DNA of 64,000 nt from Octopus vulgaris. Taxonomy: Eukaryota. Positions within the stretch are counted from its first letter, which is position 1; every line of letters starts with the position of its first letter. The translations under genes and the position numbers were made by a program. The notes beneath the pieces were generated by a model, which was not told the origin of the DNA, did not search any database, and was given only the letters and a program-made list of their open reading frames with translations. Positions 6,065-64,000 of this stretch are shown one piece after another. The stretch covers positions 223,634,001 through 223,698,000 of the forward strand of contig OX597814.1 of assembly GCA_951406725.2 (NCBI GenBank), written 5' to 3'.

Positions 6065-6475
6065 CTTAGGCGCAGTAAGTAGCTTGTTTACCAACCACAT
6101 GGTTCCGGGTTCATTCCCACTGCCCGGCACCTTGGGGAAGTGTCTCCTACTATAGGCTCGGACAGACCAAAGCCTTGCGAGTGGATTTGGTAGGCGGAAA
6201 CTGAAAGAAGCCCGTCGTATATATGTATATATATATCTATATATATATGTATGTGTGTGTATATGTTTGTGTGTCTGTGTTTGCCCCCCTCCCACATCGC
6301 TTGACAACCGATGATGGTGTGTTTACGTCCCCGTAACAAAGCGGTTCGGCAAAAGAGCGCGATAGAATAAGTACTAGGCTTATAAAGAATAAGTCCTGGG
6401 GTCGATTAGCTCGACTAAAGACGGTGCTCCAGCATGGCTGCAGTCAAATGACTGAAACAAGTAAAAGAGTAAAGA
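6065..6475 (+). mobile_element. tRNA-derived SINE family A (about 400 bp, internal microsatellite)
   Basis: Head GTAAGTAGCTTG...GGGTTCATTCCC (B-box-like), CACCTTGGG core, internal TA/TG tract and a tail ending ATGACTGAAACAAGTAAAAGAGTAAA. Homologous to 36830, 46115 and 54905. Confidence 0.85.
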
Positions 6476-40440: not shown

Positions 40441-41867
40441 TTTCATTTATTTGCGTCCGAGGCGGATGAGGGGAAACAATAAGAAGACAGACACGAAGCG
40501 TGGGGATTTACACATAATGAAATGATAAAATAATTTTTAAAAATGTAAGTATACACGATATCCAATGGAAAGAAATGGAAATATACATAGTATACAAAAT
40601 TTAAAAGGCGGGAATGGTCTCTAGAGATAATCGAGGAACCCCACTATCTGAGATCTCTCTGAACATCAAGACCAAGTGCCCCTTCCAATTCTCTCTCCCC
40701 GACTCACAGGTCTACACTCAGAGGTACTATCCACTCTTGCCATTTTCGCAACTTTCGCCCACCTTTCAGTAAACTCACTCGAGGACAGCACTTCCCTCTC
40801 TACCCTCAATTTCGTTTTCAAGTGAAACTGAAAATGTCAATGAGACGAAATTATCTGTCCTCATCCCTTTCAGCCTTGTCCACCATAAACCTCTTTCTCC
40901 ACAGCCACCTGGCAAAGGAAAACTGTTTTACCTGTCCGATTACTGGGTGATGACAGGGCAATCATCACTATGAACTCGGCCGACATAACCCCACAAGTCA
41001 GCAACGCCCGGACACTGAACGAGTGCGTGCAGAACGGTTTCGTCACTTTGCGTGCAACTCGCACAAGCTCATCTGACAGCACATCCGTGCCTGCAGAGTT
41101 TATCTGAAACAGGTAGCGCCCCATCACTGCCAGGCTAAGGACATCTAGAAATTATCCATGATAGTTTCCGACCAGAAGGTCCTCCGGAACAAACTGACAA
41201 GTTCGTTTTCGTCAGTGCCCAGACTCTCTCCGAGAACGTCGGCGCACTTATCCGCCACTAATCCTCTATAAATTTCTAAAGAGGAACATCCACCGATCCC
41301 AGTGCCCAACAGTGAGCTGTGAGCGCTTGATGACATTTCAGGTACCAGGCACCCAGTCTCGGTCTTTTCTTCATTCAGGACAACAGCTCCGTCAAAGAGA
41401 CGAGCTACGGACAGACGTGTCTCACAAACTGAGCCCTCACATGCTCACTGTCCAGAAATTGTTGCAGGTGGCGCAACCTAAGAGTATGTCTGCGTATTAG
41501 AAGACACGGCATATCTAACCCGCCACTCAAAGCGTGCTGGCAACAGATTGACCACCTGACCATAGAGTCGCGTCCCTTCCAAAAGAATTTAAATAAAAGA
41601 CGTTCCAATCTGGTCATGTAGTAACCGAGACAACGCACGACAGTCAGTCTATAAACGATAACAGAGACGATGTAGACATTCGCCACTTCTGCCCGACCTT
41701 TCAGGGACAACTTCTTCTCAGCCTATTTTTGGGTAAGACTGGCCATCCTGTTCGTCACCTCGTCCCGATCCTTATCAATTTGGAGGTCGGAATTAAACCT
41801 GACCCCGAACAGTTTAACTGGTCCGTCGATCCAGCGTCCGATGACACCACCCGATGGCATCGATCTG
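40441..41867 (-). pseudogene. 5'-truncated, decayed Tx1-clade LINE related to 55318-60756
   Basis: Fragments align to ORF2: MPSGGVIGRWIDGPVKLFGV vs MPSNNVVGRWTEGPVKLLGV, LERLLFKFFWKG vs LERILFRFLWKG, and LVSLFRRTF vs LINLFRRTF. The 3' end is similar (GAGGGGAAACAATAAGAAGACAGAC). Confidence 0.9.
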
Positions 41868-54324: not shown

Positions 54325-54562
54325 TAAGGCAGCGAGCTGGCAGAAACGTTAGCACGCCCGGCGAAATGCTTAGCAGTATTTCGTCTGCCGTTACGTTCTG
54401 AGTTCAAATTCTGCCGAGGTCGACTTTGCCTTTCATCTTTTCGGGGTCGATAAATTAAGTACCAGTTACGCACTGGGGTAGATATAATCGACTTAATCCC
54501 TTTGTCTGTACTTGTTTGTCCTCTCTATGTTTAGCTCCTTGTGAGCAATAAAATTTAAAAAA
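54325..54562 (+). mobile_element. SINE family B (Tx1-tail subfamily), full-length monomer with 17-bp TSD
   Basis: Flanked by ATATCTTATCACTCTAT at 54308-54324 and 54563-54579. Confidence 0.92.
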
Positions 54563-54904
54563 ATATCTTATCACTCTATCTATTGATAGACGAGCCAATA
54601 ATGGAACTTCTACGCATGCGATCGGCCCGCTAGAAATAACAGCCAATTGTCTTAAAAGGGCAGCACACATTGGTCAAGCAGTCCTATCATTACAGTTGAA
54701 ATGCTTTCCATGAGATATTTTTTTCCGTCAGTACTAATTTGGAACTGAACAAAAGAAAGAATCTATTGAGAAGTAGTTACAGAGCGGAGGAGTTTATAAG
54801 GCAGAATCGTTGATTTTTGAGCTTTTTAAAAAACGACTGTTATTTGCAGCGCTCCTCTCAAGAGGTTATGGTGCGTGTGTGTGTGTGTGTGCGCGTGTTT
54901 GTAT

Positions 54905-55118
54905 CTTTTATCTTTTACTTGTTTCAGTAATTTGACTGTGGTCATGCTGGAGCACCGCCTTTAATCGAGCAACTCGACCCCGGGACTTATTCTTTGTAAG
55001 CCCAGTACTTATTCTATCGGTCTCTTTTGCCGAACCGCTAAGTGACGGGGACATAAACACACCAGCATCGGTTGTCAAGCAATGCGAGGGGGAAAAACAC
55101 AGACACACAAACATACAT

Positions 55119-55177
<59 letters not shown>

Positions 55178-55317
55178 CGACGGGTTTCTTTCAGTTTCCG
55201 TCTACCAAATCCACTCACAAGGCTTTGGTCGGCCCGAGGCTATAGTAGAAGACACTTGCCCTAGGTGCCACGCAGTGGGACTGAACCCGGAACCATGTGG
55301 CTGGTTAACAAGCTACT
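54905..55317 (-). mobile_element. SINE family A, interrupted in its tRNA-like head by the LINE array
   Basis: Well-conserved family-A copy. It stops at ...GGTTAACAAGCTACT, where intact copies continue with the last about 20 nt of the head (minus-strand GTGGCTGTGTGGTA). Confidence 0.9.
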
Positions 55318-55546
55318 TTATTTCATATAATTTGCCATTTAGGCATTTACAAAGAGGGGACAAACAAGGACAGACAAATATAAAGGATGAAGTAGCTTAA
55401 CACAGTTACAATTTTCGAATGAAATTACGGATAAGATTATAAACAATGAATTTTACGAAGGCAATGTTTAAAAATATTAATGATCATGTCGAAGGACGGA
55501 CACCCAGCCATCCGGGTAGAACCTTTACTTTCTGATCCGGTCACAC

Positions 55547-55768
55547 TTACCTGGTGCCAAACATACCCATCTTGTATGCCACAGGCTTCCATCTTTTCAC
55601 AAACATATCTCGTGACAGACACCTCTTCTCCAGCCTGATTTTGCTACTGAGGTGGTAACTAAAAAAGTTAATCAACCCCTGGCCGGAGACAAAGGTGCCT
55701 GTCACTATACCTTTCGTACGCGTCTTCCATACTGTTTCTTTCAGTATGGCTACTACAAGAAAAAACAA
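55547..55768 (-). CDS. Frameshifted C-terminal extension of LINE ORF2
   Basis: FFLVVAILKETVWKTR... continues ORF2 in the -1 frame across a T6 run. It is colinear with the decayed copy (KTVFLCQVAVEKEV at about 40900). Confidence 0.75.
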   Translation of the reverse strand: MFFLVVAILKETVWKTRTKGIVTGTFVSGQGLINFFSYHLSSKIRLEKRCLSRDMFVKRWKPVAYKMGMFGTR

Positions 55769-58700
55769 GCCTTTCTTTCCCTGTTAAGGAAAGGGGGCGG
55801 CACAATCTCGATGATAGACTCAGCTGATAGCTGTACTCTTCCCATCACTGACAACAGTTGTTCTACAAAAGCTATCAGTCCCGATAACTCCGGACACTCC
55901 ACGAATGCGTGCAAGACGGTCTCCCTATTCTGCTCACATCGCGGGCATGTCGGCGAGACGGCACTACCGTGCCTTGACAGCTTGTCGCGAACAGGTAAAG
56001 CCGCACGGAAACATTGCCAGGCTAGGGATTTCTGGTAATTATCCAGGTACCCCGGCCCGAACGTCCTCCGGAACAGGTTGATCAACTGATTTTCATCGTA
56101 GCCCAGGGTCTCCCCCAAGGCGTCTTCGGACTTAATCTCCACTAACCCGCTATAGAAATCCGTGGTGGAACTCCTGTTGCCGGCGTTGCCCACCCGAGAT
56201 AGTAGCTGGAGCGCCTGACGGCACTCCAAATGCCATTCACTCAGTTTAGGTCTCCGCTTGATCCATGCACCGATGTCCGTTAGGGATGTTAACTGGGGAA
56301 GGTAGAACCGGACGTGCGGCGACCACACCTGCTCTCCATCCAGGTAAAGCCAGAGGTGCCTCAACCTTAACGCGAGTTTTCGCATCCTCAGCCAAGGCAT
56401 CCCTAGCCCACCCTTTAGCGGTTTCTGGCAGCAGACAGAGCGCTTTACAAGTGGCTTTCCTCCTTTCCACAAAAATCGGAAAAGGATTCTCTCCAACTTG
56501 TTCAGCCACAAATCGGGGCAAGGCACCACGGTCAGACGGTAGGTGATTACTGATGCTATAAACATCTGCACCACCTCCGCCTTCCCTAGCAGGGATAACG
56601 CCCGCCCAGACCAGGTCTGGGTTAGAGCGGTCACCTTGTTGGCCACCTCACTCCAATTTTTCTCAATCTGGAGGTCTGGCCCGAACCAGACTCCGAGCAG
56701 CTTAACAGGACCTTCCGTCCAACGCCCTACGACGTTATTGGACGGCATCGGCTTGCCCCTCCAGGTGCCGAGTTGCAAACCGACCGACTTGTCCTTGTTA
56801 ACCTTTGCTCCTGCCACCGCCTCGTAGCTTTTTATGGCCTCTTCCACCACTGGAAGCTGGCCTTCGTCTGCCACGATGATGGAGGTGTCATCCGCATACG
56901 CCGTAGCTCCTCTTCCACACCATAGATCATGCGGCGCGCCCCCTAGTGCCTCCAACTTCCGCAGCAAAGGCTCAAGAGCCAATACGTATAGGAGCGAGGA
57001 CAGGGGACACCCTTGACGAACTGAACGCTCGATCCTGAACGGCTTCGAAAAGGAACCGTTCACCTTGACTACAGACTCGATGTCGCTATACAAAGCAGCG
57101 ATCCAACCTCGAAAGGTCGGGCCTAGGCCAGCCTCTCCGAGGACCGCCGCCAGGTACCGATGGTCGACCCTATCAAATGCTTTGGACTGGTCTAAATGTA
57201 CCAGTGCTCCCCCTGCGCCAGAAAGCTTCCCCACCCTCTCTAAGGAGTAGCGTATAAGGTGGAGATTGTCGTGGATCGTTCTGCCGGGGATAGCGCACGT
57301 TTGCGCTTCCCCGACAAGTTTGTCCACGACCCGCGCCAACCTTTTTGCTAGCACCTTGGCCAGAATCTTTAACTCTGTGTTTAACAGAGTTATGGGCCTG
57401 AAGTTCCCTATCTCGTCCCCCTTGTTCGGGTCCTTCCTGATCAAGGTCACCGCCCTCCGGCTCGCAGACTTGGGAATTCTCCCATTCTGCTGCCAGTTGG
57501 CGTAGACGCTAGCCAGCAGGTGCCCGAACAAGTTTGGCATACTTCTATAAAATTCATAGGGCAGACCATCGAGACCCGGCGACTTCTCCCCGGGGCACTT
57601 GCCCAACACCTCGATTACTTCCTCGGCTGTGATTGGCCCTTCACAGCACTCAGCCTCTCGTGTCGAGAGGCGCGGGCCACCAGACAGGAAGTCCCTAAGG
57701 GCCTCACCATGATCCAGCGTCCCGCACCTCCCGAACAACTCGGCGAAGTGCTTGTGGAGTGCCTCACACATCTCGTCCCGCTTCTTGATCGTGCATCCGT
57801 TTTCATCAACAAGAGACCCAATTGTGGCATCGTTTCCACGCTGTGTTTCTATCGTACGGGCCCATCCGGCAACATTAATTCCCTCACGGCCCAATGCTCG
57901 TACTTTAGCCCGGACTCTACATCCCTCATGTTTGGTTTTGAGGTGACGGTCTAATGCCGTTCTCGCCGCTAAAATGTGAGATGCAGAGCCCAACCTCAAC
58001 GCCTCCTCTAAGTTCTTAACTAGTTGCCCTTCTATTCTAGCCCTATCTAGTCTTAGTTGTTTACTAAATCTAATGGACTCGAATCGAATGGCTCTTTTGA
58101 GGGTGAACCACCACCGGTTATTAACCACGGCTCCGGTTAACGCCCTCTGCACTAACACCTTAATCCGGCTACGGTATGCCTCGCGTGTCAAAATAGACTT
58201 GTTCAGCTTCCAGTAGCCGGTTCCTATCTTAAGTGTGCTATCTATGTCCAGTCTACACGTGACCATTCTATGGTCAGTATAGGGCACCTGGACGAGCTGT
58301 GGACAACTAAAACTAGACTTATCTCTAGTTCTTATCACTATCCTGTCTAGATAAGACTTGAACCTTCCGTCGCCACTCATCCAGGTCCACTCTGGGACGT
58401 TCGGATGGTCAAGTCTGTAACGATCTGCTAGCTGAAACCGTTTAAGCAGATCCACGAGACGTGAGTTCACTTTCCTATAGATCGAGCCAACGCTATCGAT
58501 GTGTACGTCAACGATAGCATTAAAGTCCCCTAATATCACTAAAGTCTTCGACGTCACGAGAAAGCCCTCTAGGCGCCGATAAAAATCAGTTTGGAAACCT
58601 CTAGCACAAGGTGCATAGAGTCCGATCAACCTGAAGGCCTTACTGCTGTATGTCACATCAAGGACGACCAGCCCACCTTCTGGGTCTACATAGACTGTAC

Positions 58701-58947
58701 TTGTCTGTAGAGCCAAGTCTTTACGGATCAGTACCACTACGCCCCCTCGCCCTCCGGTCTGGCCAGGAGACATGATTTTCTCGTAGCCATTCAGGAGAGG
58801 CGAGAAGGTTTGTAGGCTGTCCAGCTTGGTCTCTGTAGCAACCATCACATGTATATCATGTGATCTGAGGTCGTCGAGGAAACAAGCCTGCTTCCACTTC
58901 GAACTCAGACCACGCACATTTAAACAACCAAGGTTAAGCGAAGCCAT
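55753..58947 (-). CDS. LINE ORF2: APE endonuclease, reverse transcriptase and C-terminal CCHC zinc finger (1064 aa)
   Basis: LNVRGL, ETKL, LYAP, LGDFN, YLDR and TDH (APE). KSPGLDG, FRPITLLN, DQSKAFDRV, RQGCPLS and YADD (RT). CPRC..ETVLHAFVEC (zinc finger). Confidence 0.97.
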   Translation of the reverse strand: MASLNLGCLNVRGLSSKWKQACFLDDLRSHDIHVMVATETKLDSLQTFSPLLNGYEKIMSPGQTGGRGGVVVLIRKDLALQTSTVYVDPEGGLVVLDVTYSSKAFRLIGLYAPCARGFQTDFYRRLEGFLVTSKTLVILGDFNAIVDVHIDSVGSIYRKVNSRLVDLLKRFQLADRYRLDHPNVPEWTWMSGDGRFKSYLDRIVIRTRDKSSFSCPQLVQVPYTDHRMVTCRLDIDSTLKIGTGYWKLNKSILTREAYRSRIKVLVQRALTGAVVNNRWWFTLKRAIRFESIRFSKQLRLDRARIEGQLVKNLEEALRLGSASHILAARTALDRHLKTKHEGCRVRAKVRALGREGINVAGWARTIETQRGNDATIGSLVDENGCTIKKRDEMCEALHKHFAELFGRCGTLDHGEALRDFLSGGPRLSTREAECCEGPITAEEVIEVLGKCPGEKSPGLDGLPYEFYRSMPNLFGHLLASVYANWQQNGRIPKSASRRAVTLIRKDPNKGDEIGNFRPITLLNTELKILAKVLAKRLARVVDKLVGEAQTCAIPGRTIHDNLHLIRYSLERVGKLSGAGGALVHLDQSKAFDRVDHRYLAAVLGEAGLGPTFRGWIAALYSDIESVVKVNGSFSKPFRIERSVRQGCPLSSLLYVLALEPLLRKLEALGGAPHDLWCGRGATAYADDTSIIVADEGQLPVVEEAIKSYEAVAGAKVNKDKSVGLQLGTWRGKPMPSNNVVGRWTEGPVKLLGVWFGPDLQIEKNWSEVANKVTALTQTWSGRALSLLGKAEVVQMFIASVITYRLTVVPCPDLWLNKLERILFRFLWKGGKPLVKRSVCCQKPLKGGLGMPWLRMRKLALRLRHLWLYLDGEQVWSPHVRFYLPQLTSLTDIGAWIKRRPKLSEWHLECRQALQLLSRVGNAGNRSSTTDFYSGLVEIKSEDALGETLGYDENQLINLFRRTFGPGYLDNYQKSLAWQCFRAALPVRDKLSRHGSAVSPTCPRCEQNRETVLHAFVECPELSGLIAFVEQLLSVMGRVQLSAESIIEIVPPPFLNRERKACFFL

Positions 58948-58963
58948 TACAAAAGTAAAGGTT

Positions 58964-60292
58964 CTACTTACATTTCGTTGGAGAGGTGGGGGCCGACCTC
59001 ACCACACGTTTGTGGGCCCCTTCTTTCTCCTCTTTCTTCAGATAGTCCGGCAAGTTCGCGATATGCCGGATGGCGTTTGGGTGTCTGTCTTTTAATTGTT
59101 TGAACGTTGTTTCCGCAATCCACGCGTGTCTATTTCGATCTTTGTATTTGTTGTACAGTCTTGCTGACTGATGCTGAACCACAATATCGTTTATGTATTT
59201 GTCTTGTGTGTCGAATTCAATTAATATGAGTTCATTTTCTTTTTTGTCTTCTTTTTCTGGGCCAGTTGAGCGGGATTTTTTTTTCCGTGTCTGTGGTGTG
59301 TCTTTGTTTTTATTATTTTTTGTAGGGGATGTGGACGGGGATGCTGCACGAATTCTTTTACGAACTGGTGTAAATCCCCCCTCTGATACCTCCATGGTAT
59401 CGTCTGTGGTAGCAATAGTTTGTTCGGTAGGCGCCGCAGTTTTTAGGGGGGTGGGAGGTTTTAATAGTGTAGGGGTTTGTGAGTGCGAGGGCTAGGTTTT
59501 TTCTTCAGTCTGTTTTGGGGTTGGCACCGTAACAGCAGGAGTGGGATTTTTTGTTTTTGTAGGGGTAGGTGTGTTTGCAAGGGTAGGGACTTTTTTATTA
59601 TCTGAGGGGCCTGGTGTCTGCGGTTTCTTTTGCTTGTCTGGACAGTCTACACGAATGTGGCCCTTTTTGCTGCAGGCGTAACAGGTGGGTTTTCGGCCTT
59701 CGACCTGTACCCTGAGGGCTACGTTCTCGCCCACGAGCACCCTCTCAGGAAGGAGCTGCAGGTCCTCCGCTGTTCCTTGAATTAATATATTAATGTTACG
59801 CCCGAGCCAAAATCGAGGGGTAGAGCATGTTACTTCTAGTATTTTTATTTTGTCCGCCCTTTTATATAACAGGGCGGCCACTACCTCTACCGGATCTACG
59901 TCCGGCGGGGCTTCTACAATCCTGACCCGGGACGACCTGCGTCCCCTATAGCTTGGAAAAAGTACCACCTCCTTGGTTTTTAGGGGGTTCACAGAATGCC
60001 CGCGGGCCATTTCTTCCCCCGAGAAGCGGACATCCACAGTGCCATATGCCCGTCCCCTGGCGACGTACACGATGTCCTTCCAAATCGGGGACAGGCATTT
60101 CTCGATGGTGCTTTTTTCAAAGTGTTTGAACCTTCTGCTTTGTGGACAGAAAGTTTTAAACACTACGGTCCGCTTCTCGGTCTCCACGATACTGGCGGAG
60201 GGTGATATTTTAACATCACCACCCTCCTCTTGCATTCTTTTAAATAGCTCGACGAGCTGGTTGACATCGATGTCAATCTTCTCGGTAGCCAC
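58964..60292 (-). CDS. LINE ORF1 (Gag-like, CCHC zinc knuckle), interrupted by one in-frame TAG at 59492-59494
   Basis: Track ORFs 59492-60292 and 58964-59395 are in the same frame and joined by an open P/T-rich linker. Knuckle CYACSKKGHIRVDC. The track start codon is GTG. Confidence 0.85.
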
Positions 60293-60771
60293 TGCGGCTA
60301 CCTCAGAAAATTTTTAACATTGCTCTCCTCAAGAGCACTACTTTCGTGAATAATTTCAACAGACATTATTCTGTTGAAATTAGACAACACAAAAATTACG
60401 AATATTGGTTTCCCACAAAACTGGGAAACCTATAGAAAGTTTTTCTTCCAAAGTAGTTCAAAAAAGCAGTTCAAAAATTCCAATTCCCACCCCCATTCGG
60501 GGGAGGGGCACGAAAATAGTCTGGCAGGACTATATATAGTCACGTAAATAAAAAGCCACAGTGGCTAACAGTTCAACGGTAAGAAATTATTCAATTATTT
60601 CCCGGTAAAACCGGAGAACAAGACAGTTCAGCAACGTTTAAAGGCAAATTTTCAGTAGTAGGAATTCAACAATTAATAACACAGCAAAACTTCTTACCGG
60701 GAAGAAAACGCGTCCAAACCGTAGTACGGTAGGCAAAGTCACTCTTCTGTCAGTGAGGTTAGCAAGCTACT

Positions 60772-62755
60772 TTATTTTAAATAATTTGCCACTAGGGCAG
60801 CACACAGAGTAGTAGCTACGGGCTGGACAAGGACATTAATGGATGATGGTGGTGGTTGATGAAGATGGTGATGGGAGAAGTCGAAAGCGCCCGCCGACTT
60901 TTGCTTCTCTAAAACAATGTTTCAATAAATACATTTAATAAACAATGATTCAAATTGCATAAAAATGTTCAACAATTCTTCTCGTCAGGTCCCCGAAGCA
61001 AATTGTCTTGCCGCCTGCAGACAACTCTGCGACGACAAGTCGGGGCCTGCAAAGAGAAAGGTAAAGTCTTTCTTTTCAAAGGTCTCTGCGACCCTTGACA
61101 AAGTATCTTCTGTTACTTTCTCCGCAGCTACCTGCGGAGGCCATAACGGACTCCTTGAGCCGACCGTGTCCTTACGCTCTCGGTCACCCAAGCCAGTCAA
61201 GAATCTTTCAACCTTCTCTCCCTTGTGGTAAAGGAGGAGAAGCATCTCCTCTTCACAGGGAGGGACCTCACACTCCTCCGTCGGTGGCACACTTCCCACT
61301 GGCGGAGCCTTGTCCGCGGGTGGCACACATCCCACCCGCGGCTCCGTCGGCGACACAGAAACGTCAGTCGTCCGACCTCTCCTTTTTCTCCTCCTTCTTT
61401 TGGGGGAGACTGCTGACCCAGGGGACTCCGTCACCAGACACGGGGGATTGCTATCCCCCTTCGCCCCCTGAGCGTTCTTTGGCGGGCAACCATTGTTGCT
61501 CGCCTTTCTCTTTCTTTTCGTGGAGGCAACCTCCTCCACGACTTCCATCGTCTCCCCCTCCAATGAGGGGGCGGCGGGCGCCTTTTCCCCTCTCTGCTCC
61601 GGGGCACCACTACGGCCCCTGGGACAATTCTTCCTGATATGTCCGGGCTTCAGGCACAGGTGACACTTGGGGGGGCGACCCTCGAGTATCACCGGGTACC
61701 TGTGCCCAGCCATTCTCAGGAAGTCCGGGAATTTCATTTGCCCCACGGCTACCGGTGTCCACAGGGTCAAGGTTGCCCTCGACCCCTGCCAGGCGACCGC
61801 GGGAGCCACCTTCACACTTAGCAGTCTGGGTCCGCTATCCCCCAGGCCTCGCCGGATGGTCTTTTCGATCCATTCCGCCTCCGTGCCCGGGGGCAGCCCA
61901 CACACCCAGGCTCTTTTCACTTTTCTGCCACAATACGAGGGGAGGAACAAAATTTCCTCTCCCTCCAGTGGCTCGCTAGCAAATCTGCTAGCTTCCTCGG
62001 GGGTACCAAACAGCAACCAGACCGTTGCAAATTTGCTCCCCCGAGAAATAAATTTTATAGTTGGCAGGTAGTCCCCCAACTCTTTCTCTATAGTATTCTT
62101 GTCGAAGAGGGCAATGGCTCCACGCGACCTAGAATAGGTTCGTAGGACCACCGTCCTCTTCTCAAGACTTTCAATCCACTGCTTTGGTGGGACGACCTCC
62201 CATTCCAAAGCGGTGGTTTCTTTTGTTGCCATGTTTTTTTTTTTGTTTTTTTTAAATAAATGTATTTAGAATAAAACTAAAAAACGAGAAGAAAAGGAAA
62301 TCCGAAGAATGTCACAATGAAAAACGGAGAGAGTCAAATAAAGTTGAAAAGAAAGTCAAATAAAGTTAAAAAGAAAGTCAAAAACACAGCAAAATCCTTT
62401 TGGCCATTTGGTACTCCCGGCCTAAATCGAACCAGGATCGCACAACTTCCACAAAAATTGGTGTAAAATTGGTAGTTCTTCACAGCACCATACAATTTTC
62501 ACAATTCGAAGACGGATACGCCCCCCAAAATTTTCTCAGCGAGAAAATATATCTGCCACATGTCGGCAGAATCAGAATTCTGAATCCAGTAGGACTTCCT
62601 GCATGTAAAAAATAATTCTCAACAAAAACTCCCACTGGACCCAGAAAACAGAATCTTACCTTACATGGGGCTTCCAAAGTTTCAATTCAAGACGGCTTCA
62701 AAAGCACATCTTCACTGCTTCAGTAGCAAACACAACACTGACTCGCACATGCGCA
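60772..62755 (-). mobile_element. Non-autonomous ORF1/Gag-only retroelement, copy 1 (about 2.0 kb)
   Basis: 5' UTR of about 520 bp, a single ORF, and a 3' UTR of about 210 bp ending like the LINE (TGGCAAATTAT..AAATAAA). Bounded by GTTAGCAAGCTACT on both sides. No RT or endonuclease sequence. Confidence 0.88.
60985..62232 (-). CDS. Gag-like ORF1 protein with CCHC zinc knuckle (415 aa)
   Basis: Intact ATG ORF with knuckle CHLCLKPGHIRKNC and basic NLS-like tracts (KRKRK, KRRRRKRR). Colinear similarity to the LINE ORF1. Confidence 0.9.
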   Translation of the reverse strand: MATKETTALEWEVVPPKQWIESLEKRTVVLRTYSRSRGAIALFDKNTIEKELGDYLPTIKFISRGSKFATVWLLFGTPEEASRFASEPLEGEEILFLPSYCGRKVKRAWVCGLPPGTEAEWIEKTIRRGLGDSGPRLLSVKVAPAVAWQGSRATLTLWTPVAVGQMKFPDFLRMAGHRYPVILEGRPPKCHLCLKPGHIRKNCPRGRSGAPEQRGEKAPAAPSLEGETMEVVEEVASTKRKRKASNNGCPPKNAQGAKGDSNPPCLVTESPGSAVSPKRRRRKRRGRTTDVSVSPTEPRVGCVPPADKAPPVGSVPPTEECEVPPCEEEMLLLLYHKGEKVERFLTGLGDRERKDTVGSRSPLWPPQVAAEKVTEDTLSRVAETFEKKDFTFLFAGPDLSSQSCLQAARQFASGT

Positions 62756-62769
62756 GTTAGCAAGCTACT

Positions 62770-64000
62770 TTATTTTAAATAATTTGCCACTAGGGCAGCA
62801 CACAGAGTAGTAGCTACGGGCTGGACAAGGACATTAATGGATGATGGTGGTGGTTGATGAAGATGGTGATGGGAGAAGTCGAAAGCGCCCGCCGACTTTT
62901 GCTTCTCTAAAACAATGTTTCAATAAATACATTTAATAAACAATGATTCAAATTGCATAAAAATGTTCAACAATTCTTCTCGTCAGGTCCCCGAAGCAAA
63001 TTGTCTTGCCGCCTGCAGACAACTCTGCGACGACAAGTCGGGGCCTGCAAAGAGAAGGTAAAGTCTTTCTTTTCAAAGGTCTCTGCGACCCTTGACAAAG
63101 TATCTTCTGTTACTTTCTCCGCAGCTACCTGCGGAGGCCATAACGGACTCCTTGAGCCGACCGTGTCCTTACGCTCTCGGTCACCCAAGCCAGTCAAGAA
63201 TCTTTCAACCTTCTCTCCCTTGTGGTAAAGGAGGAGAAGCATCTCCTCTTCACAGGGAGGGACCTCACACTCCTCCGTCGGTGGCACACTTCCCACTGGC
63301 GGAGCCTTGTCCGCGGGTGGCACACATCCCACCCGCGGCTCCGTCGGCGACACAGAAACGTCAGTCGTCCGACCTCTCCTTTTCTCCTCCTTCTTTTGGG
63401 GGAGACTGCTGACCCAGGGGACTCCGTCACCAGACACGGGGGATTGCTATCCCCCTTCGCCCCCTGAGCGTTCTTTGGCGGGCAACCATTGTTGCTCGCC
63501 TTTCTCTTTCTTTTCGTGGAGGCAACCTCCTCCACGACTTCCATCGTCTCCCCCTCCAATGAGGGGGCGGCGGGCGCCTTTTCCCCTCTCTGCTCCGGGG
63601 CACCACTACGGCCCCTGGGACAATTCTTCCTGATATGTCCGGGCTTCAGGCACAGGTGACACTTGGGGGGGCGACCCTCGAGTATCACCGGGTACCTGTG
63701 CCCAGCCATTCTCAGGAAGTCCGGGAATTTCATTTGCCCCACGGCTACCGGTGTCCACAGGGTCAAGGTTGCCCTCGACCCCTGCCAGGCGACCGCGGGA
63801 GCCACCTTCACACTTAGCAGTCTGGGTCCGCTATCCCCCAGGCCTCGCCGGATGGTCTTTTCGATCCATTCCGCCTCCGTGCCCGGGGGCAGCCCACACA
63901 CCCAGGCTCTTTTCACTTTTCTGCCACAATACGAGGGGAGGAACAAAATTTCCTCTCCCTCCAGTGGCTCGCTAGCAAATCTGCTAGCTTCCTCGGGGGT
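62770..64000 (-). mobile_element. Non-autonomous ORF1/Gag-only retroelement, copy 2 (runs off the window end)
   Basis: Almost identical to 60772-62005. Two 1-bp homopolymer deletions (near 63055 and 63382) frameshift the ORF. Confidence 0.88.

Follow-up and report, generated by a model that had tools for sequence, protein, structure and literature searches.

Octopus LINE and ORF1-only retroelements share one insertion base in a SINE head and stack head to tail

How do several retroelements come to lie head to tail at a single point within a short interspersed nuclear element (SINE)? The question is raised by a 64,000-nucleotide stretch of the Octopus vulgaris genome (C1:223634001-223698000 of a 2.8-Gb assembly, where C1, C5, C10 and the like are contig labels), referred to here as the window. 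On its minus strand lie a SINE body, a 5.44-kb long interspersed nuclear element (LINE) that we call LINE A, and two copies of a 2-kb element, el2, whose one open reading frame (ORF) is of the ORF1 type. A preliminary description had proposed that such a LINE cuts beside the A-box region of the SINE and builds arrays by repeated insertion. On the evidence below, it is quite probable that LINE A and its ORF1-only partners use one base of the SINE head, that a word carried at their 5′ ends rebuilds the site, and that later elements stack in front. Individual genomic copies and loci are given L-numbers.

A stack of eight elements in one SINE

The three junction words, GGTTAACAAGCTACT, GGTTAGCAAGCTACT and GTTAGCAAGCTACT, were found where the preliminary description had placed them (Table 1), each followed by an element 3′ end, TTATTT..ATAATTTGCCA; by chance, 7e-5 occurrences of the 14-mer would be expected in 9 kb. 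One base sets the first word apart from the other two (A versus G), and this is systematic rather than noise. The interrupted SINE (54904-55317) matches a full copy at 6077-6475 at 84%, and the two el2 copies in the window are 99.8% alike across 1,247 bases. The initial view of three elements of two kinds in the same orientation was right as to the kinds but not as to the number. The next 20 kb past the window contain five further 2-kb copies and then the word with TACCACACAGCCACTCCTGC, the missing SINE head that had been predicted to end the array. The complete stack comprises eight elements, one L1-group LINE and seven 2-kb ORF1-only elements, within one SINE over 19.4 kb.

The stretch is present in sequencing runs of 7 studies under 2 organism labels, with no RNA run on record among them. 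Four independent runs were compared as contigs, from which starts, ends and expression cannot be read. One contig from an independent study, X17 (60409-60808), runs from a LINE 5′ end through the word into the 3′ end of an el2-type element.

Insertion at one base of the SINE head

Insertion occurs at GGTA|AGTAGCTT, always in SINE orientation and two bases behind the A-box-like TGGCTGTGTGG of the SINE head (the A- and B-box-like motifs were picked by eye against the box consensus). Genome-wide, 104/107 exact LINE 3′ ends directly precede AGTAG. One of the other three lies on the target minus a base and two are short off-target fragments, placing 105/107 on target. The suggested cut beside the A-box region is thereby narrowed to one base, and the 3′ flanks of the LINE are far from random. 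Enrichment extends beyond the LINE, as a generic junction pattern was found at 1,018 places of many families, compared with 1 for a control pattern. The endonuclease of the LINE is the likely cause of the cut, and the SINE could serve the elements as the 'safe harbour' first suggested. At equal stringency we counted 95,065 empty versus 862 occupied SINE sites (0.9%). At one off-target locus, L199 (C20:37793040), a different tRNA-like repeat is followed by no more of LINE A than its final 27 bases.

The same pattern could arise with no targeting if a SINE with the LINE inside had been copied as a unit, or if the array were an assembly error. The latter would fit the many one-base indels by which array copies differ (2-13 gap columns for neighbouring copies) and the lack of any read seen across the whole array. 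However, the SINE flanks differ by 8.6% (23 flanks) while the LINE copies differ by 1.2%, and the upstream flanks share nothing (27 flanks), which argues that the insertions were independent. The array copies are moreover separated by shared substitutions, and the joint of LINE, junction and el2 is spanned by the independent-study contig. We regard an origin without targeting, or by assembly error, as having next to no likelihood.

LINE A is an L1-group element with a Tx1-type ORF1

In LINE A ORF2, the Pfam domains PF03372, PF00078 and PF13966, representing an apurinic/apyrimidinic endonuclease (APE), a reverse transcriptase (RT) and a C-terminal zinc motif, all exceeded their curated cut-offs. 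The frame is open in copies L108, L109, L115 and L128 (1,140-1,150 codons stop to stop), and ORF1 runs uninterrupted for 488 codons in copies that include L128 and L115; these two thus have both frames open as found in the assembly. The window copy, separated from its nearest relatives by 14 substitutions over 5,186 columns, has frame breaks at which the main contigs of the independent runs deviate from it. Across 32 near-full copies the median difference was 1.2%, and only 3/41 LINE copies are missing >100 bases of the 5′ end.

The best solved relative of ORF2 is human L1 ORF2p (E 1.8e-125, profile positions 5-856). R2 follows at E 2e-44 among solved structures, a set in which other clades are poorly represented in PDB. 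LINE A belongs to the L1 group. The nearest named RT relatives are an Argonauta hians protein (63% in the RT) and a Pelobates cultripes protein (42%), and the protein searches returned no named Tx1 protein among their matches. A metagenome scan yielded 55 loci, all distant relatives, mostly at 21-33% identity. A zf-CCHC domain was found in the LINE ORF1. Type I ORF1p, combining an RNA recognition motif (RRM) with zf-CCHC, is described as consistent with Tx1 in the available text of PMC5203782. By its sequence features LINE A is likely to fall in the Tx1 clade, and the preliminary assignment to APE LINEs agrees with the domains, the solved relatives and an RRM model of the related el2 ORF1.

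The 3′ end carries a hairpin, TGCC-loop-GGCA, with AAATAA, in all four reference families and in 28/30 position-ordered junctions, a count in which the GGCA half was imposed by the search pattern. A poly(A) tail was ruled out, since 60/60 3′ ends adjoin the target AGTAG directly. In L035, a 10-kb LINE A array with 5′ ends and junctions, no Rfam match reached the gathering score; a divergent ribozyme would escape this search.

The junction word is partly copied and partly carried

The preliminary description took the 14-15-mer to be a target duplication and named, as a finding that would speak against targeting, its being a constant part of the element ends. Both junctions were compared in 101 copies, of which 93 were usable (7 had no usable 5′ end and 1 no word). 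The diagnostic set was formed by 23 copies whose SINE target departs from GCTAAC at positions 9-14. In 21/23 of these the upstream junction still ends CTAAC(C); the other two are a 13-base hybrid (L114) and a full 15-base copy (L188). L172 illustrates the transition, as a rare target base at +6 was copied and the base at +12 was not. The upstream junction generally consists of ~8-11 target bases followed by (G)CTAAC(C), often after one extra T. Since the diagnostic copies keep the element word, the real duplication spans 8-11 bases in most cases, with the remainder coming from the element. The word is therefore a duplication only in its first part, and its last 6-7 bases are indeed constant in the element 5′ ends; targeting itself is unaffected. 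Among 5′-truncated copies, the duplication measures the full 15 bases in L121 and 9 bases in another, indicating that the position of the second nick varies.

If all 14-15 bases were duplicated target and the element carried none of them, L188 and truncated L121 would be accounted for, as their 15-base duplications place the second nick that far out. The 21/23 diagnostic full-length copies, however, show the element word and not the target word. This explanation is refuted for full-length copies, unless gene conversion rewrote the 5′ junctions in one direction, and as a general account we hold it to be highly improbable.

More distant families (L154, L065, L163 and L201) begin GCTTAC, GCTTAT or GCATAC, not GCTAAC, and GCTTACC is the commoner SINE variant among the listed empty sites. 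Over time, the word on the elements may have followed the SINE subfamilies.

ORF1-only elements at the same target

The single frame of el2 encodes 415 amino acids in 2 kb, with a CCHC knuckle. A model of its ORF1 region has two RRM-like domains at a pLDDT of 81; its matches to tandem-RRM proteins reach E ~1e-4, and their whole-chain TM-scores are low (0.25-0.33). The el2 protein is 29% identical to LINE A ORF1, and no DNA match between the two elements was found at E 1e-3. Origin of el2 as a deletion product of LINE A is ruled out on both counts; LINE A was the parent tested, rather than the other site-sharing LINE subfamilies (80-94% to LINE A).

Further ORF1-only families occupy the same target, among them el3 (2.2 kb) and el4 (1.5 kb), and of the first 30 junctions on C1, 23 were el2- or el3-like, 6 LINE-like and 1 unclassified. 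Their proteins are ~58-67% identical to that of el2, and synonymous sites are close to saturation. The ratio of nonsynonymous to synonymous substitution (dN/dS), compared for eight frames, was 0.09-0.25 in the 26 of 28 pairs that were computable. Together these values indicate that the ORF1-only families are old lineages under purifying selection. They share the site, the junctions and the 3′ hairpin with the LINE, from which we infer that the LINE ORF2p probably moves them in trans.

Three features of these elements were noted in passing. The first bases of el2, el3 and el4 (window 62748-62755), directly after the junction word, read GCGCATG / CATGCGC, which is absent from LINE A and which we take to resemble an NRF1 site. 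GGTAAG, presumably splice-donor-like, occurs in the 5′ untranslated part of LINE A (+59), el2 (+96) and el3 (+92), in the window at ~60698 and ~62660. The target itself reads TG|GTAAGT, and el4 is without GGTAAG in its first 400 bases. In el2 copies on C1, C5 and C10, blocks of diagnostic bases cross lineages and several copies look mosaic, which may reflect template switching or gene conversion.

Arrays appear to grow mainly by repeated insertion

Descent was traced in a tree built from 30 el2 copies. It is mixed within arrays, most members being closer to copies on other contigs than to their neighbours. Copies 3 and 4 of the window array are 2-3 substitutions from a C10 copy and 6-13 from other neighbours, and the head-end el2 copy on C5 is nearest to window copy 1. 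The number of T residues at the junction gives a second marker. A three-T junction was handed on in 13/15 cases, compared with 14/76 after a two-T target; this inheritance along the array favours sequential insertion at the restored upstream site. LINE copies stack as well. At C9:2664554-2680875 (L034-L036), three full-length LINE A copies lie in tandem in one SINE, 24-46 substitutions apart and with three-T junctions throughout. A 17-kb stack at C10:101173000-101191000 has nine units of at least 4 ORF1-only families and no LINE; one of its units has an internal deletion and one combines el3 and el2 sequence at its 5′ end.

Local DNA duplication, by unequal crossing-over or slippage between junction words, has also taken place. 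Window-array copies 3/4 and 6/7 are each 1 substitution apart in 1,854 columns, C5 copies 1-2 recur as 3-4, and the three C9 LINEs are partly closer to one another than to other copies. As the main process it is refuted by mixed arrays with up to four or more families (C10, C7, C3), which it cannot yield. Neither can it yield the 19/23 el2 runs whose first copy stands before a different family, and most array members lack their nearest relatives next door. We keep local duplication as a contributor and consider it very unlikely to have built the arrays for the most part. Growth by repeated head-to-tail insertion, as first proposed, is well supported by the mixed descent and the three-T inheritance.

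el2 prefers occupied sites

With only 0.9% of sites occupied, re-use is expected to be rare, and 3/27 loci were stacks in a position-ordered sample. LINE A stands in front of another element in 4/41 copies and el3 in 1/29 (L184 was reassigned to SINE by eye and L193 left unassigned). For el2 the figure is 28/30, or 19/23 when each run is represented by its first copy. In counting the el2 runs, row C29 was reassigned from 'other' to SINE by eye, and two runs lie in one array. The contrast between el2 and el3 implies that something in el2 itself is needed. Our first guess would be the el2 ORF1 protein, for which TRE5-A, with targeting thought to be guided by ORF1p by way of TFIIIB in the available passages of PMC5006619, provides a precedent; a read-through RNA tail or template-jumping joint insertion would come next. 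A general preference for occupied sites could arise from a promoter exposed at the restored site, where the nearby B box has been lost.

Joint insertion leads to a different view of the stacks, in which each forms in one event. The RT would jump from one RNA to the 3′ end of a co-packaged ORF1-only RNA, with pairing at GCTAAC, and el2 would ride along. Such a route would explain the rarity of solitary el2 copies, the similar age of el2 and its neighbour, and the mosaic el2 copies. However, the two-T/three-T state goes with the array and not with the el2 lineage, as if copied from the preceding junction. One el2 lineage has two T in the window and three T on C5 and C10, and in the C5 and C10 arrays the window-array lineage sits at the head end, before other lineages. 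One-event formation therefore appears unlikely to us. A ready-made el2-el3 dimer was rejected, as el3 copies 4 substitutions apart occur with el2 copies 27 apart, and el3 copies 20 apart with el2 copies 7 apart.

A proposed mechanism

The stepwise reading, with one base as target and a rebuilt site, would run as follows. ORF2p would nick the bottom strand at the target base, and reverse transcription would start at a fixed point of the RNA, whose 3′ hairpin and AAAUAA ORF2p would recognise; this shared 3′ tag would let the ORF1-only families borrow ORF2p. Transcription would begin inside the carried word and the cDNA end would pair with the target overhang, giving mostly full-length copies and restoring a standard target upstream. 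The small number of 5′-short LINE copies fits such a start and pairing. New elements then land on the restored site and arrays extend towards the SINE head, a step that is well supported. The weakest step, to which we give somewhat less than even credence, concerns the hits on occupied sites far above their 0.9% share, mostly by el2. These may reflect a promoter exposed kilobases from the B box together with a pull exerted by the el2 ORF1 protein.

Several points weigh against this reading. The full 15-base duplications of L188 and of 5′-truncated L121 and the 13-base duplication of L114 exceed the usual length, and L196 and L112 do not copy target position +6. The three-T test treats locally duplicated copies as independent, and its P of 8e-7 is too small. 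Open chromatin alone fails to explain how LINE A and el3 differ from el2. The age of an el2 copy goes with that of the LINE variant behind it, older with older and younger with younger, which fits joint insertion too. Finally, sequence comparison is the basis for the proposed start site, nick and action of ORF2p in trans.

A broader arrangement in three tiers is possible, though on balance doubtful. The SINE would be the host; a Tx1-type LINE would target the SINE and rewrite the site; and el2 would specialise on this LINE and the partners of the LINE, steering borrowed ORF2p ~90-fold towards occupied sites by means of the el2 ORF1 protein or of a read-through RNA tail. If so, the passenger, and not the endonuclease alone, would set target choice.

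Features of the window and its surroundings

The features of the stack are collected in Table 1. A search of the window for tRNA genes with ARAGORN was negative. Another SINE-like family, with >10 pieces in the window, is present at 54325-54552, and an old fragment at 41008-41270 is 68% like the ORF2 region of LINE A. A second stack (L032, C1:223713500-223716000) lies 5 kb past the array in the opposite orientation; in it, el2 stands in front of the 5′ end of another family, which is itself interrupted by a SINE.

Table 1. Parts of the element stack within the window (window positions).
Feature	Position	Strand	Remark
Host SINE body and tail (side of the B-box-like GGTTCAGTCCC)	54905..55302	-	head 19.4 kb away, outside the window
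Original target word of the host SINE copy, AGTAGCTTGTTAACC	55303..55317	-	insertion point directly before first base
Full-length 5.44-kb LINE, family 'A'	55318..60756	-	youngest subfamily
LINE 3′ hairpin TGCC-5 nt-GGCA, then AAATAA	55333..55345	-	without poly(A) tail
LINE ORF2: APE endonuclease, reverse transcriptase, zf-RVT	55753..58947	-	1,064 amino acids, frame broken near end
LINE ORF1 with CCHC knuckle, fragmented in window copy	58964..60313	-	frames and domain search
Junction: AGTAGCTT(G) copied from target + GCTAACC from LINE 5′ end	60757..60771	-	junction comparison, X17
el2 copy 1 of 7, 2-kb ORF1-only	60772..62755	-	open frame 60985-62232, 415 amino acids
Junction AGTAGCTT + GCTAAC	62756..62769	-	junction comparison
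el2 copy 2, 3′ part	62770..64000	-	five further copies past the window edge precede the last junction and SINE head at C1:223708756

Implications and comparison with known systems

The results add a SINE to the targets of sequence-specific LINEs. The system is young, of APE type, near-exact (105/107) and mostly full-length, with copies in which both frames are open, and it suits a test of whether, in APE elements, integration is completed by target sequence at the RNA 5′ end. Of all the findings, the el2 bias most deserves experimental work, and el2 and el3 form a natural pair for asking whether an ORF1-only passenger shifts ORF2p insertion. If the cut works in cells, the ~95,000 dispensable sites would offer cephalopod transgenes a candidate landing place. 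In annotation, such nests divide a SINE into two pieces and cause families to be fused in repeat libraries.

Tx1 elements aimed at transposons, elements with ORF1 alone and 5′ ends that carry target sequence all have separate precedents, and neither a SINE target nor this combination was found in the literature searched. That literature comprised titles, abstract starts and passages (including PMC3747384 and PMC9004415), with few subscription papers and no Repbase Reports or supplements, and within it no SINE-targeting LINE was met. In the available parts of PMC4824008 and PMC4758252, OR1 and OR2 are named as octopus CORE-SINEs. The part of PMC13282606 at hand, on octopus repeats, gives 13 recently active L1-Tx1 families with 421 insertions and does not mention targets, and that of PMC8967140 names L1-Tx1 as a class only. 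Xenopus Tx1L in Tx1D, Keno (U2), Kibi and Koshi (microsatellites) and crocodilian Tx1 elements in LTR and Harbinger elements, all covered in PMC4494074, are L1-group LINEs of APE type with a multicopy target, as here. No SINE is among the Tx1 targets in the available text of that paper, whose figure listing all targets is known to us from its legend; the target lists in its supplement or figure 3, or a Repbase entry, may already hold the LINE A family.

Other systems share single features with the octopus elements. Dada DNA transposons insert within the A box of tRNA genes or close to it, often with a word of their own in place of the duplication (passages of PMC8869645), and Dictyostelium TRE5-A is an APE LINE (PMC5006619, in part). 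Both aim at true tRNA genes, whereas the octopus elements aim at a SINE head; Dada is a DNA transposon, and TRE5-A inserts ~50 bases upstream by position and not at a sequence within the head. R2 RNA keeps upstream 28S target sequence, and its annealing to the target has been proposed for uniform 5′ junctions in the part of PMC3774820 consulted. R2, however, uses a restriction-like endonuclease and a ribozyme, whereas the octopus word sits downstream of the nick and probably restores a reusable site.

HeT-A forms head-to-tail arrays together with its partner. Similar to the ORF1-only LINE derivatives HAL1, HeT-A and Ag-Sponge (available text of PMC5786205), which depend on an autonomous partner, el2 encodes ORF1p only. 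Unlike in those cases, many octopus ORF1-only families share one interstitial target, and el2 is not built from the 5′ and 3′ parts of LINE A, with which it shares only the 29% protein identity and the terminal motifs.

Tx1-Mar LINEs and SINEU-3 of crocodilians, inserted into Mariner-N4_AMi, are described in the text of PMC4494074. As in the octopus, a Tx1-type LINE sits on a high-copy transposon, non-autonomous partners share its target, and tandem copies, there ascribed to sequential insertion, flank the duplication. Tx1-Mar, however, uses two regions with a preference of 13-90%, whereas the octopus target is one base of a SINE head, and its non-autonomous partners are SINEs, whereas those of the octopus are protein-coding ORF1-only elements. 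The octopus system also differs in being young (1.2% between copies), in having open frames and in that the element itself supplies part of the junction word.

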